A DNA stretch of 63,465 nt, counting the filler, from Globobulimina sp. (lineage: Eukaryota), in assembly GCA_003354225.1 (NCBI GenBank). It is 55 parts of 55 records of this genome, joined end to end, with 100 filler letters (N's around TTAATTAATTAA, not from the genome) between each part and the next. Parts side by side here need not be neighbours in the genome. Positions count along the whole stretch, not along the records: positions 60,101 to 61,155 come from PIVH01024706.1; 54 more parts are not named here. One strand, given 5' to 3'. Shown one piece after another: positions 45,660-63,462 of this stretch. A program made the position numbers and the translations under genes. Each line of letters opens with the position of its first letter. Position 1 is the first letter of the stretch. The notes beneath the pieces are model-generated. The model made no database searches. It saw nothing but the letters and a program-made list of their open reading frames with translations, and was not told where the DNA came from.

Positions 45660-46140
45660 CTATTGTTTTCTTCTATTAGCTCCTGCAAGACCTAAAAGGC
45701 CAATTCCAAACAAGAACATGGTTGCTGGTTCAGGAACTGGGGCTGTCCCCTCACTTGGTGTATAGTCAGCAGTAATAGACCATGAGTTTAACGCACCAGA
45801 ATCACCACCATATTGATCGAAAATGTGCAAACGCCAGTCCCCCAAGATATCCATTCCAGCTGCCCAAGAACTCACATCAAAAGTTTGGACTATGTCATCA
45901 GTACCGGAGCCAGTACCGTTCCATAGTCTATAGGAAGACGTATCACCAGGGTTATACAAATCTATTAATAAATCACCTTGGTAAGTGTGAGAAATATCCA
46001 AAAATATTTCCATAGTATTAATGGTACCGACCTCAGCAAATGTTATGATTGAGTCAGGAACCATATGACCTGACGTTCCCGTTTCGGGAATTAATGTACC
46101 TGGAGATACTGATTCAGTTATAGTTGCTGCTGACACTACT
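45660..46140 (-). CDS. PEP-CTERM protein with proprotein-convertase P domain (bacterial), 5'-partial
   Basis: DISHTYQGDL.I.L..P, GDWRLHI.D...DSG.LNSWSI; VPEPATMFLFGIGLLGLAGANRRK. Confidence 0.95.
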
Positions 46141-58946: not shown

Positions 58947-59510
58947 TTATTAGTAAAGTTAATAAATTATAAATTATCCTCATCCAAATCAATTGAAACC
59001 AATTCACCCTCACTTCCACCATATATTATACATATTTTTAATCATATTTTAAAATCAGTTACTTTCATAAATATTAATGTTGAATTATTTAAAAAAGAGT
59101 TAGTTTATACAGATAAAGTTCGTGGTCCCCAATATGGATATTTTAAGTTATTTTCATTATTTATGCATTCAAATAATTGGATTCGTTTCAAGGTTTTCCA
59201 TAAATTGGTTCCTCAAATAAGTCAAATAGTAATTGTGTGTATTGAATATTCATCAAATAATAATTATAAATATTCCCCATCAATAATGATAACAGATGCA
59301 ATTTTATTGGATATTTATAAGGTTTTATCATATTGGCCATTAAAAGGAGGTATTTATATTTATTCACCATTAAATAGTTTGTCATCATTAAGATTATTAA
59401 TAAAGAAATACAATGACAAATTTTTAAAATGTGGATATAAATTACAAATTAGAAAACAGAATGATGTTCAATATGGAAGTTGTGATGCATTTCGGATAGT
59501 AAAAGAATGA
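58947..59510 (+). CDS. C-terminus of the ART-like family (paralog of 60101-61155)
   Basis: LVKLINYKL, LPPYILHIFNHILKS...ININ, YGYFK, SI.I align with the paralog. Confidence 0.65.
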   Translation, partial: LLVKLINYKLSSSKSIETNSPSLPPYIIHIFNHILKSVTFININVELFKKELVYTDKVRGPQYGYFKLFSLFMHSNNWIRFKVFHKLVPQISQIVIVCIEYSSNNNYKYSPSIMITDAILLDIYKVLSYWPLKGGIYIYSPLNSLSSLRLLIKKYNDKFLKCGYKLQIRKQNDVQYGSCDAFRIVKE

Positions 59511-59838: not shown

Positions 59839-59905
59839 AAGAGCATCCGGTCTTCAGCGTCTGATTTTTATTGGGGGCAAGGTATACGCAAACCGTTTCT
59901 GGTGA
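59839..59905. repeat. Left end of MITE family, shared with 61425-61490
   Basis: About 66 bp near-identical: AAGAGCATCC.GTCTTCAGCGTC.GATTTTTATTGGGG..AAGGTATA.GCAAACCGTTTCTGGTGA. Confidence 0.85.
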
Positions 59906-60100: not shown

Positions 60101-61155
60101 GCATTGACTGGATTTACAATTATAAATTGATTAAATATCTTATTACTTTTATTTAATAATAACTCAAAACATACAAATATTTCTTGTAAAAAATTACTAT
60201 CCAAACTTATTGATGATTCATATGGTTTCCATCCATGATTAAATATTGTTATTGTTTCTAAATTCTTCATTAATCGCATAAATAATGTAAAATTAATGGT
60301 ACTTTCATCCGATTGAATAAATATTGGACGGAATTTCTTAAATCCATAAACATCACAATCAAAATTCTTATCATGATAATCAAAATGTAAACCCATTCCA
60401 TCCATATTAATCTCAACTTTTTTTTTACTTTTTAAAAATTGATGAAATAATAAGGCGATATATTGTGGTACGACTGAATCATAGCTTGTTTCATAAATAT
60501 CACCATTCAATTCACATTTTATTAATTTATTTAATGATTTAAAATCACGATTTAACGGTTTAATGCCAAATAATGGAAAACCTTTAAACATCTCAGAACA
60601 AATATTTATAACTTTTACTAATTCTTTGTAATGTTCTTGCTTTGGGATATCATGAATGTCCATAAATTGCAATGTATTACGACAGCCAACAAATAATTTT
60701 TCATCTTCATTGGTATAACAAGTCCAATAATTACAATCAAAATATATTGACGCACTTTTCATATTTCTAATATCTAAGACAATGCCGGTTGCACCGAATA
60801 TCGTCCATGCGATTGTAAAATCTGATTATAATTAAAAAATAAACGATCTGCGAATGCGAGTGCAAAGATAAAAATAAAAAACTGGAAGTAAGAACTAACT
60901 CAAAAACTTCAAAAAAGAATGGCTGTTATCTTTCAAATTCATATGTCAGTGAAGAACTTTATAACAATGTAAACAAAACCCATGGAAGCTACTCGATGTT
61001 CGCTTTTCCCAAAGGGGATAAAATTAATATAAATGTAACAAACCGCGTGTAGTAGAAATTGGACCATTGATACGAATACAAGTGCTCTCAAATAATAATG
61101 TTTTAGAAATGCCATGATAGAATACAGAGATATTACTATTTTGCATACCAATGCC
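60101..61155 (-). CDS. Mono-ADP-ribosyltransferase-like protein; intron 60822-61043
   Basis: Spliced: VFYHGIS...GPISTTRDFTIAWTIFGATGIVLDI...YFDCNYWTCYTNEDEKLFVG. Confidence 0.7.
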
Positions 61156-61423: not shown

Positions 61424-61572
61424 AAAGAGCATCCTGTCTTCAGCGTCAGATTTTTATTGGGGTAAGGTATAAGCAAACCGTTTCTGGTGACTGATAAAGG
61501 TAAAAATAATATAGGTTTGCCTTCGTTTCTCAGAAACAATAAAGATATGACGCTGAAAACCGGATGCTCTTT
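61424..61572. mobile_element. 149-bp MITE-like element with 25-bp terminal inverted repeats
   Basis: 61424-61448 vs 61548-61572, 23/25 complementary; left end also at 59839. Confidence 0.85.
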
Positions 61573-62656: not shown

Positions 62657-62781
62657 TTTCTTATTCGTTATTTTCTTATAACATTTATTCTTTGGAACAT
62701 TTAACACTTTCAACAAACAAAAAACTGTAAACTTTACATTTCTACTTTCGCAGAATTTAACAACACCAAAAAGAGTCCATC

Positions 62782-63462
62782 ATGTATCGAAAAATTATTA
62801 CCCGACATTTCATTAAAACCACAAAACAACCATTTTTTGTTGCATCGCGTTCAGTTGCGTATGAAAGACGTAATAATTGTTTTATGCAATTAACCAGCGA
62901 GCATATTAAAATTAAAGCAACCTTGCAATCATTTGAGCGAATGTTAAATGGTATGAATAAAACAGCACATACCGTCTCAACAGAGGCCACAAAAGATATA
63001 AAAAATTACATCAAATTTATAACGCAGTATCAATTCATACACCACGAAAAAGAAGAGTATGTTTACTCGATATATGAACCTAAACGAGAGCCATGTTGTG
63101 TTGTTCGCATCGCGGAAGAAACTGTGCGAGCTGAACATGAAGACGTTGGTTTTGATTTTGCCGCACCTGGCAAAATGATGGCGTGTGGCTCAAAAGTAAT
63201 GAATGGAATATATGATTTACTTTCTGCAGAGGCAAATATTGATGTTAACCATGATATTATTGGAAAAGCATTATATTTTATAAAAAAAACCATTGAACAC
63301 ATGGACGAGGAGGATGATGAAATATATAATGATATTGAAGATAAATTAAACGCAGATGAAATTGAAAAAATTGATAATTTTTTTGCTGAATGTAATGCTA
63401 ATAAAGCAGAGGAAATTTATGAAAGTGAAAGATTAGCTGATGAATTACAACAAAAACATTAA
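62782..63462 (+). CDS. Hemerythrin/HHE-domain protein with mitochondrial-like presequence
   Basis: EH, HHEKEE, EH, H..EED..Y ligand pattern; first ~27 aa basic/hydroxylated with no acidic residue. Confidence 0.85.
   Translation: MYRKIITRHFIKTTKQPFFVASRSVAYERRNNCFMQLTSEHIKIKATLQSFERMLNGMNKTAHTVSTEATKDIKNYIKFITQYQFIHHEKEEYVYSIYEPKREPCCVVRIAEETVRAEHEDVGFDFAAPGKMMACGSKVMNGIYDLLSAEANIDVNHDIIGKALYFIKKTIEHMDEEDDEIYNDIEDKLNADEIEKIDNFFAECNANKAEEIYESERLADELQQKH

Follow-up and report, generated by a model that had tools for sequence, protein, structure and literature searches.

In PMC7955679, the ADP-ribosyltransferases (ARTs) are sorted into clades by their motif triads, His-Tyr-Glu, Arg-Ser-Glu or His-His-hydrophobic, and Table 1 of that paper gives the three motifs of human ART1 as RGV / SAS / EEE. 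The ARTCs of mammals are described as glycosylphosphatidylinositol-anchored or secreted in PMC9027952. Here we describe a gene fragment from Globobulimina sp. that encodes an ART-like domain and lies on the minus strand of positions 60101-61155 of a 63,465-base stretch of DNA, called the window below. The window consists of 55 unlinked contigs of 1,055-1,057 bp each, sorted by length and separated by spacers of the form N..TTAATTAATTAA..N, and positions 60101-61155 make up exactly one of them. Because the contigs are unlinked, adjacency in the window is uninformative about linkage and gene context cannot be used.

The reading that we favour, with somewhat more belief than doubt and on the strength of a structural model, is that the gene encodes a divergent, probably cytosolic ARTC-type mono-ADP-ribosyltransferase, which would hold nicotinamide adenine dinucleotide (NAD+) with a His, use the second Glu of a Glu-x-Glu motif for catalysis, accept arginine as the target residue and be targeted through its C-terminal domain or through adaptors. 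In this view, what the window preserves is one portion of a gene whose product would combine several domains, probably reside in the cytosol and belong to a large family.

Fold and motifs of the domain compared with known enzymes

The first-pass annotation had proposed an ART-like family from the motifs. We examined the fold with an AlphaFold2 model of P0021, a homolog of 490 amino acids that is 33% identical to exon 2 of the window gene. The model was built on a 146-row alignment and reached a predicted local distance difference test score (pLDDT) of 94.0 and a predicted template modelling score (pTM) of 0.92. The top Protein Data Bank (PDB) match of this model in Foldseek was the rat ecto-ART ART2.2 (1gxy_A; E = 1.3e-05), followed by XopAI, HopU1, ExoS, a Tre1-type toxin and C3. 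When the Foldseek candidates were aligned with VIA-align, ART2.2 scored Z = 13.9 with a root-mean-square deviation of 3.2 over 190 of 223 residues, spanning model residues 10..276, and all 50 entries listed were ADP-ribosyltransferases or ADP-ribosylating toxins by title. An unseeded VIA search of 48,161 chains again placed ART2.2 first (Z = 13.3; about 190 of 223 residues aligned). Ranks 2-17 were held by Tre1-type 6drh, XopAI, HopU1, ExoS, C3, Certhrax, Vis, an iota-like toxin, SidE, VIP2 and C2-I, which we take to be arginine-type ARTs, while diphtheria toxin came only 18th, with Z = 6.9 across 93 residues, and PARP16 reached Z = 4.2. Sequence identity with ART2.2 in the structural alignments was 14-15%. 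The modelled domain thus sits on the cholera-toxin/ecto-ART side and not on the diphtheria-toxin side, and the ART-like fold that the annotation implies held up for the homolog.

Profile searches gave a fainter signal. The ART family PF01129 scored above its cut-off of 22.3 bits in three of 71 members (P0119, 25.4; P0121, 24.0; P0155, 26.2), and one further member reached 15.7 bits. The family lacks one defining feature of the ARTC/PF01129 enzymes, the motif I Arg, and most of its members fall below the Pfam threshold. NCBIfam returned nothing relevant for seven proteins. In the ESM Atlas, the ART part of P0021 retrieved PF01129-bearing clusters from a haptophyte and a rotifer at 0.89, which we treat as leads only; clusters of FAD_binding_5 retrieved with exon 2 had a best score of 0.80, which is noise level, and were rejected.

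The conservation of the three motifs was counted in the 146-row alignment, which includes the window's own three rows. At motif I, His accounts for 43 of the 53 rows, the others being Cys (3), Ser (3), Thr (2), Met (1) and Phe (1); the following residue is Gly in 48 of 51. The motif II columns read Ser (51/58), Thr (49/58) and Thr (43/58; Thr or Ser in 54/58), and the two acidic positions of the motif III Glu-x-Glu are Glu in 117 and 118 of 119 rows, preceded by a conserved loop, F-D-C-x-x-W-S-D-[FY]. Overall, the Ser-Thr-Thr and Glu-x-Glu columns are 74-99% conserved, and the residues of the window gene fit nearly all columns conserved at a level of at least 70%. Among the ten rows that have no His, eight retain Ser-Thr-Ser/Thr and Glu-x-Glu, one has no Ser column and one is degenerate. 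The motifs picked out in the annotation are therefore family features, with a His at the place of the Arg and with conservation among paralogs.

In the P0021 model, a strand at 187-192 bears F-H-H-G, a strand at 209-212 bears T-S-T-T and is followed by a helix at 215-222, and a strand at 253-256 begins at the second Glu of E-D-E, after the conserved loop. The His-to-Glu spacing in P0021 is 63 residues. The Arg-to-Glu spacing of ART2.2 is presumably also 63, counting from R126 in the numbering that we assume for this enzyme (R126/S147); E189 of ART2.2 is confirmed by PDB titles. From these motifs, the active site would appear to be a hybrid, with a first-strand His and with the Ser-Thr-Thr and Glu-x-Glu retained.

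The helices that precede the first catalytic strand contain four charged residues conserved to the same degree as the motifs. In P0021 numbering, these are R144, within a Y-T...T-[FY]-R helix motif (34/38 rows), R158 (97% of 40 rows; Arg in 39 of the 42 rows with a residue there), E150 (97%) and E171 (95%). R144 or R158 might compensate for the absent motif I Arg.

Compared with ART2.2 and the other vertebrate ecto-ARTs (PF01129; 1gxy/1og3/1og4), the foraminiferal domain shows its best match, which takes in the entire domain of about 270 residues, N-terminal helical part included, and carries Ser-Thr-Ser/Thr and Glu-x-Glu on the same strands. It differs in having His and not Arg on the first strand, so that the family reads HG[IV] / STT / EDE against the motifs of human ART1. 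The proteins also differ as a whole: the foraminiferal homologs are 650-1,200 amino acids long, with a long N-terminal region and an extra C-terminal domain of about 210 amino acids, and have no signal-peptide-like start.

Bacterial effector ARTs of the arginine type carry the canonical Arg. Those of the Tre1 type (6drh/6dre), XopAI (6k94), HopU1 (3u0j) and ExoS/ExoT (6gnk, 6gnn) match the model with Z = 9.5-11.1 over 154-185 residues and share the Ser-Thr-Ser and Glu-x-Glu layout. Unlike these secreted or injected proteins, the foraminiferal family is spliced and eukaryotic, has a His and is flanked by different domains. The first-strand His-Gly is instead a likeness to the diphtheria-toxin/PARP clade, in which the PARPs read HG[ST] (PMC7955679, Table 1) and the foraminiferal proteins HG[IV]; in this comparison, however, Ser-Thr-Thr replaces the second-strand Tyr and the structural similarity is much weaker. 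Finally, the family shares the absence of the motif I Arg with ARTC3 (K-L-V) and ARTC4 (G-S-E), as given in the same table. These two are single genes regarded as inactive (PMC9027952), whereas in the foraminiferal proteins the His is conserved across a large family and the two other motifs are kept.

Gene structure, family and domain architecture

The minus strand of 60101-61155 carries a two-exon gene fragment that is open at both contig ends and starts at the first catalytic strand. Partial exon 1 (61155..61044, minus strand) encodes 37 amino acids (GIGMQNSNISVFYHG...GPISTTR) and the first base of an Asp codon; its translation is GIGMQNSNISVFYHGISKTLLFESTCIRINGPISTTR, in a frame open to the contig end, and it covers the ART domain from the first strand to the Ser-Thr-Thr strand. 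It is 58% identical to P0017 over 36 amino acids (tblastn; E = 4e-08). Motif I, VFYHG, lies at 61125..61111 with its His codon at 61116..61114, and motif II, GPISTT, which is the second-strand Ser-Thr-Ser/Thr motif, at 61065..61048 (both minus strand). The intron (61043..60822, minus strand) is 222 nt long, bounded by GT..AG and in phase 1. When left unspliced, the exon-1 frame reaches a stop six codons into the intron, after ..TTRGLLHLY.

Exon 2 (60821..60101, minus strand) reads DFTIAW...NEDEKLF... followed by 196 further residues, and remains open to the contig end. Its first part (60821..60631, minus strand) supplies the remaining ART strands, the pre-Glu loop FDCNYWTCYT and motif III, NEDEKLF (60711..60691, minus strand), whose Glu-x-Glu is at 60708..60700; along the spliced fragment the motifs thus follow in the order VFYHG, GPISTT, NEDEKLF, as the annotation had it. 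The remainder (60630..60101, minus strand) encodes a family-specific C-terminal alpha/beta domain that is cut by the contig end, with about 45 residues missing. The division of exon 2 follows from P0021: residue 276 is the last of its ART domain, and the next one, Tyr277, is aligned to the Tyr of HYKELV.

To assess the junction, contigs from four public runs (X1, X4, X6 and X7) were placed on the contig at 60101-61155. The contigs of three of the four runs join 60821 to 61044 and skip the 222 bases in between (CT..AC on the plus strand), with two such contigs in X4, one in X6 (61 letters on its shorter side) and one in X7 (59 letters). X1, the run with most words, gave no joint, and its contigs continue through the intron. 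In X4, the summed depth was 279-1,469 over exon bins against 8-119 over intron bins. The best homolog, P0001, reads CPVSTTRDFIIAWSIFG unbroken across the junction. The junction proposed at 61044/60821 is accordingly exact. Since none of the source runs is on record as RNA, with X6 and X7 only presumed to be so, we call the joined form transcript-like. A chance motif in non-genic DNA was considered as well and rejected, given the open frames, the GT..AG intron with its joined contigs and 221 homolog clusters.

Within the intron, a high-copy repeat occupies 60841..60934 (no strand assigned). The summed depth of X1 rises to 1,637 there, whereas the exon bins that flank the intron have 14-95, and loose ends begin at 60841 in X1, X6 and X7. 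No second copy of this repeat was found within the window. Of the 45 X1 contigs placed on the 1-kb stretch, 13 have at least 99% identity, 18 have 95-99% and 14 have 90-95%, a spread that fits several close copies or variants in the sample.

A phmmer search with exon 2 against 1.84 billion cluster representatives returned 221 matches at E ≤ 1e-3, of which 77 were at ≤ 1e-10 and 15 at ≤ 1e-30. The top match was P0001 (51% identical; E = 5e-68). A word-index protein search with the same query scored none of its 320 candidates. In the window, the family is present on two of the 55 contigs only. These numbers agree with the multi-copy, expanded family that had been anticipated from the sequence. 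Thirty members were looked up, and the 20 that are named all come from EukProt foraminiferal transcriptomes, namely Globobulimina turgida (1), Nonionella stella (6) and Bolivina argentea (13); the remaining ten are ENA or Logan records. The family is so far known from Foraminifera and environmental assemblies only.

Full-length relatives are about 650-1,200 amino acids long, and the part equivalent to the window gene is at their C-terminal end. They consist of a variable N-terminal region of about 300-600 amino acids that lacks a Pfam family of its own, then an ADP-ribosyltransferase domain of the cholera-toxin/ecto-ART (Arg-Ser-Glu) type, about 270 amino acids long, and a conserved alpha/beta domain of about 210 amino acids at the protein terminus. 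Of this layout, the window contains most of the C-terminal domain and that part of the ART domain which begins with the first catalytic strand. Some members are fused to further Pfam modules, zf-MYND in P0119 and P0150, SAP in P0100 and TPR in P0095, which lie in the N-terminal region and, in P0150, near the C-terminus. Weak matches to SH2, CUE and PUB were below cut-off.

Two further patterns were observed in the N-terminal regions. A shared Cys-x(2-5)-Cys...His-x(3-5)-His arrangement occurs in P0003, P0017, P0049, P0088 and others; a loose regular expression for it, of a kind that may often match by chance, fits 27 of the 32 long members. An acidic E-E-Y-D-T-D motif is present in some members.

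Location in the cell was approached through the homologs, as the N-terminus of the window gene is off the contig. A crude Kyte-Doolittle scan of the 32 long, Met-starting homologs found a signal-peptide-like N-terminus in none, the largest 12-residue mean within the first 40 residues being 1.54. Five of the 32 (P0083, P0115, P0137, P0139 and P0154) start with MG...[C/S], which suggests that these paralogs may be anchored on the cytosolic face of a membrane via a myristoylation/palmitoylation-like signal. Together, the absent signal peptides and the MYND, SAP and TPR fusions point to a family that would work in the cytosol or nucleus, as far as sequence features can tell.

The C-terminal domain begins at about residue 65 of exon 2 and is conserved across the family, and the window residues match its conserved columns (Tyr, Gly, Leu, Pro, Tyr, Phe, Gly, Phe, Ser, Pro). 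A second family member, represented by this domain only, is encoded on an unlinked contig at 58947..59510 (plus strand; 187 amino acids, stop TGA at 59508-59510). The sharing of the domain between the two contigs, which the annotation had noted, was confirmed both directly, by 28% identity over 126 amino acids between the window gene and 58947-59507 (pairwise E = 9e-07), and through the independent member P0119, which is 36% identical to the second copy over 171 amino acids (E = 3.8e-19). The AlphaFold2 model of the second copy (pLDDT 92.9) is an alpha/beta fold with a terminal beta-hairpin, and its helices and strands follow the same order as residues 303-489 of the P0021 model.

Comparison of this C-terminal model with known structures gave no Foldseek match at E ≤ 0.001, the best being a methyltransferase at 2.5e-03 with a template modelling score of 0.27. 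In a VIA-align search of the 48,161 chains, the best scores were Z = 5.6 (COI1), 5.3 (TIR1) and 5.0 (methyltransferases), where the stated noise level is about Z = 8. The resemblances to leucine-rich repeats (COI1, TIR1) and to methyltransferases thus lie below noise, and no fold was assigned. Since hydrophobic or structural residues make up most of its conserved positions, we suppose, with low confidence, that the domain may be a recognition or regulatory module.

A stretch of 56 nt recurs with 93% identity at 59850-59905 and 61436-61490 on two unlinked contigs, one copy lying 3' of the second family copy and the other on the next contig. It is probably a dispersed repeat.

Proposed activity and competing explanations

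Whereas the fold, the motifs, their conservation, the splicing and the range of the family are shown here, NAD+ binding, transferase activity, arginine specificity and the role of the C-terminal domain are inferred. The ART domain would still bind NAD+, with the first-strand His taking the position, and possibly the role, of the His in diphtheria-toxin/PARP-type enzymes, while the conserved upstream R144 and R158 may help to hold the phosphates. Catalysis by the second Glu would move one ADP-ribose onto the acceptor, which, if the Glu-x-Glu enzymes are a guide, would be an arginine on intracellular proteins, and the C-terminal domain would select the target or regulate the enzyme.

Several points weigh against the proposal of an ARTC-type transferase. 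Arg defines motif I of the clade, yet it is present in none of the 53 rows of the family, and replacing this Arg cripples several toxins, so that the activity could be low or lost. The putative placement of the His at the Arg site rests on its first-strand position, the [FY]-x-G-[IV] context and the spacing. Window exon 1, exon 2 and the second-contig copy matched no Pfam family at E ≤ 10 in a scan that took the exons apart and had only the last third of the ART domain to work with. Searching the PDB by sequence or profile with six queries (exon 2, the A1 profile, P0119, P0155, P0121 and the A3 profile) found no ART, and returned only MYND matches for P0119 and one chance match each for P0121 and the A3 profile; the link to the ARTs therefore rests on the predicted structure of a homolog and on the three weak Pfam matches. 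In addition, the joined contigs may stem from an intron-less DNA copy, and the contigs give no substrate, eraser enzyme or genomic context.

The total lack of the motif I Arg leads directly to the first rival explanation, that the ART fold has been kept and catalysis lost with the Arg, leaving a binder of NAD+, ADP-ribose or protein, or a scaffold, as part of a signalling protein. The precedents are ARTC3 and ARTC4, which depart from Arg-Ser-Glu and are regarded as inactive (PMC7955679 and PMC9027952). However, known inactive ARTs lose several motif residues, whereas the foraminiferal proteins keep the Glu-x-Glu, the Ser and the His at the frequencies given above, a pattern that indicates selection on a working pocket. 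The His is, moreover, native to the first strand of the diphtheria-toxin/PARP clade (PMC7955679), and is compatible with NAD+ binding. We consider a pseudoenzyme unlikely, though deserving of serious attention.

A second explanation is that the protein is an NAD+ glycohydrolase (NADase) and not a protein transferase, and acts as a metabolic or death switch by consuming NAD+ or by making ADP-ribose or cyclic products. The ART fold is common to NADase effectors, one of which, Tne2, matches the model at Z = 4.6, and a changed phosphate-binding residue could shift the outcome of the reaction. The closest structures, with Z of 9-13 against 4.6 for the NADase, are nevertheless protein-modifying, arginine-type ARTs. 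A loop with aromatic residues before the catalytic Glu, together with Glu-x-Glu, is a substrate-recognition feature of transferases, and both are conserved in the family; the large conserved partner domain and the adaptor fusions would also suit targeting. We judge this explanation to be improbable.

The enzyme could also be an active ART that modifies something other than protein arginine, be it a different residue, a nucleic acid or a small molecule. Its specificity is left open by the altered motif I and by the unassigned C-terminal domain, and the below-noise resemblance of that domain to methyltransferase-like nucleotide-binding folds gives a lead, though only a lead, in this direction. 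Against this, the motif present is Glu-x-Glu and not Gln-x-Glu, the former being the one associated with arginine specificity in enzymes of the ARTC, C2/iota, ExoS and HopU1 types. ART2.2, the closest structure, is an ARTC enzyme, and members of that family modify primarily arginines (PMC9027952). We give such an acceptor little credence.

Least probable of all, and unsupported by these data, is the defence half of the suggestion in the first-pass annotation, a toxin-like protein for defence or signalling, in the form of a secreted or delivered toxin or defence effector acting against prey, symbionts or pathogens: many structural neighbours are bacterial toxins and effectors and the family has undergone strong expansion, a frequent trait of conflict genes, but the best structural match is a eukaryotic enzyme and not a toxin, and the missing signal peptides together with MYND, SAP and TPR fusions, which are intracellular modules, make the other half, intracellular signalling, the better guess.

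An intracellular ARTC-type transferase with a first-strand His is thus the reading that we carry forward. In the literature on foraminiferal and Reticulomyxa ADP-ribosylation and on H-S-E ARTs, judged by titles and the opening lines of abstracts and with the main ART-family survey outside this set, no description of the family was found, and the foraminiferal family is apparently new to the literature. To our knowledge, ARTC-type enzymes in animals work only outside the cell. If the proposal is true, the family would provide an example of ARTC-type enzymes acting inside a eukaryotic cell, and would test how far the first-strand residue can be swapped between ART clades. The family is also largely invisible to Pfam, at three of 71 members scanned. 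No fold could be assigned to the conserved domain of about 210 residues that it carries. The unusual triad, the intracellular ARTC-type setting, the lineage-specific expansion and the conserved extra domain raise the weight of the finding, whereas the known enzyme fold and the fragmentary state of the window gene lower it. As a more tentative extension, which we think possible but doubtful, Foraminifera might run a large intracellular arginine-ADP-ribosylation network, in which ARTC-type enzymes with a hybrid His-Ser-Glu site and a new C-terminal alpha/beta domain for choosing targets would be wired, paralog by paralog, to MYND, SAP and TPR modules or to lipid anchors.

Other contigs of the window

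The G+C content of the contigs in the window is mostly 26-46%. Pfam matches on the remaining contigs include Adaptin_N, RhoGEF, Cyclin_N, ankyrin and Ion_trans, which are typical of eukaryotic genes, and an Rfam scan of the window gave no matches. On the minus strand at 45663-46139, an open reading frame encodes a proprotein-convertase P domain (Pfam E = 4e-12) and, after it, a PEP-CTERM motif (E = 5e-09). PEP-CTERM is a bacterial sorting signal, and this contig may represent bacterial contamination or a transferred gene. A further open reading frame of 233 amino acids at 62761-63459 (plus strand) shows a weak match to the hemerythrin HHE domain, at 26.3 bits against a cut-off of 25.3.

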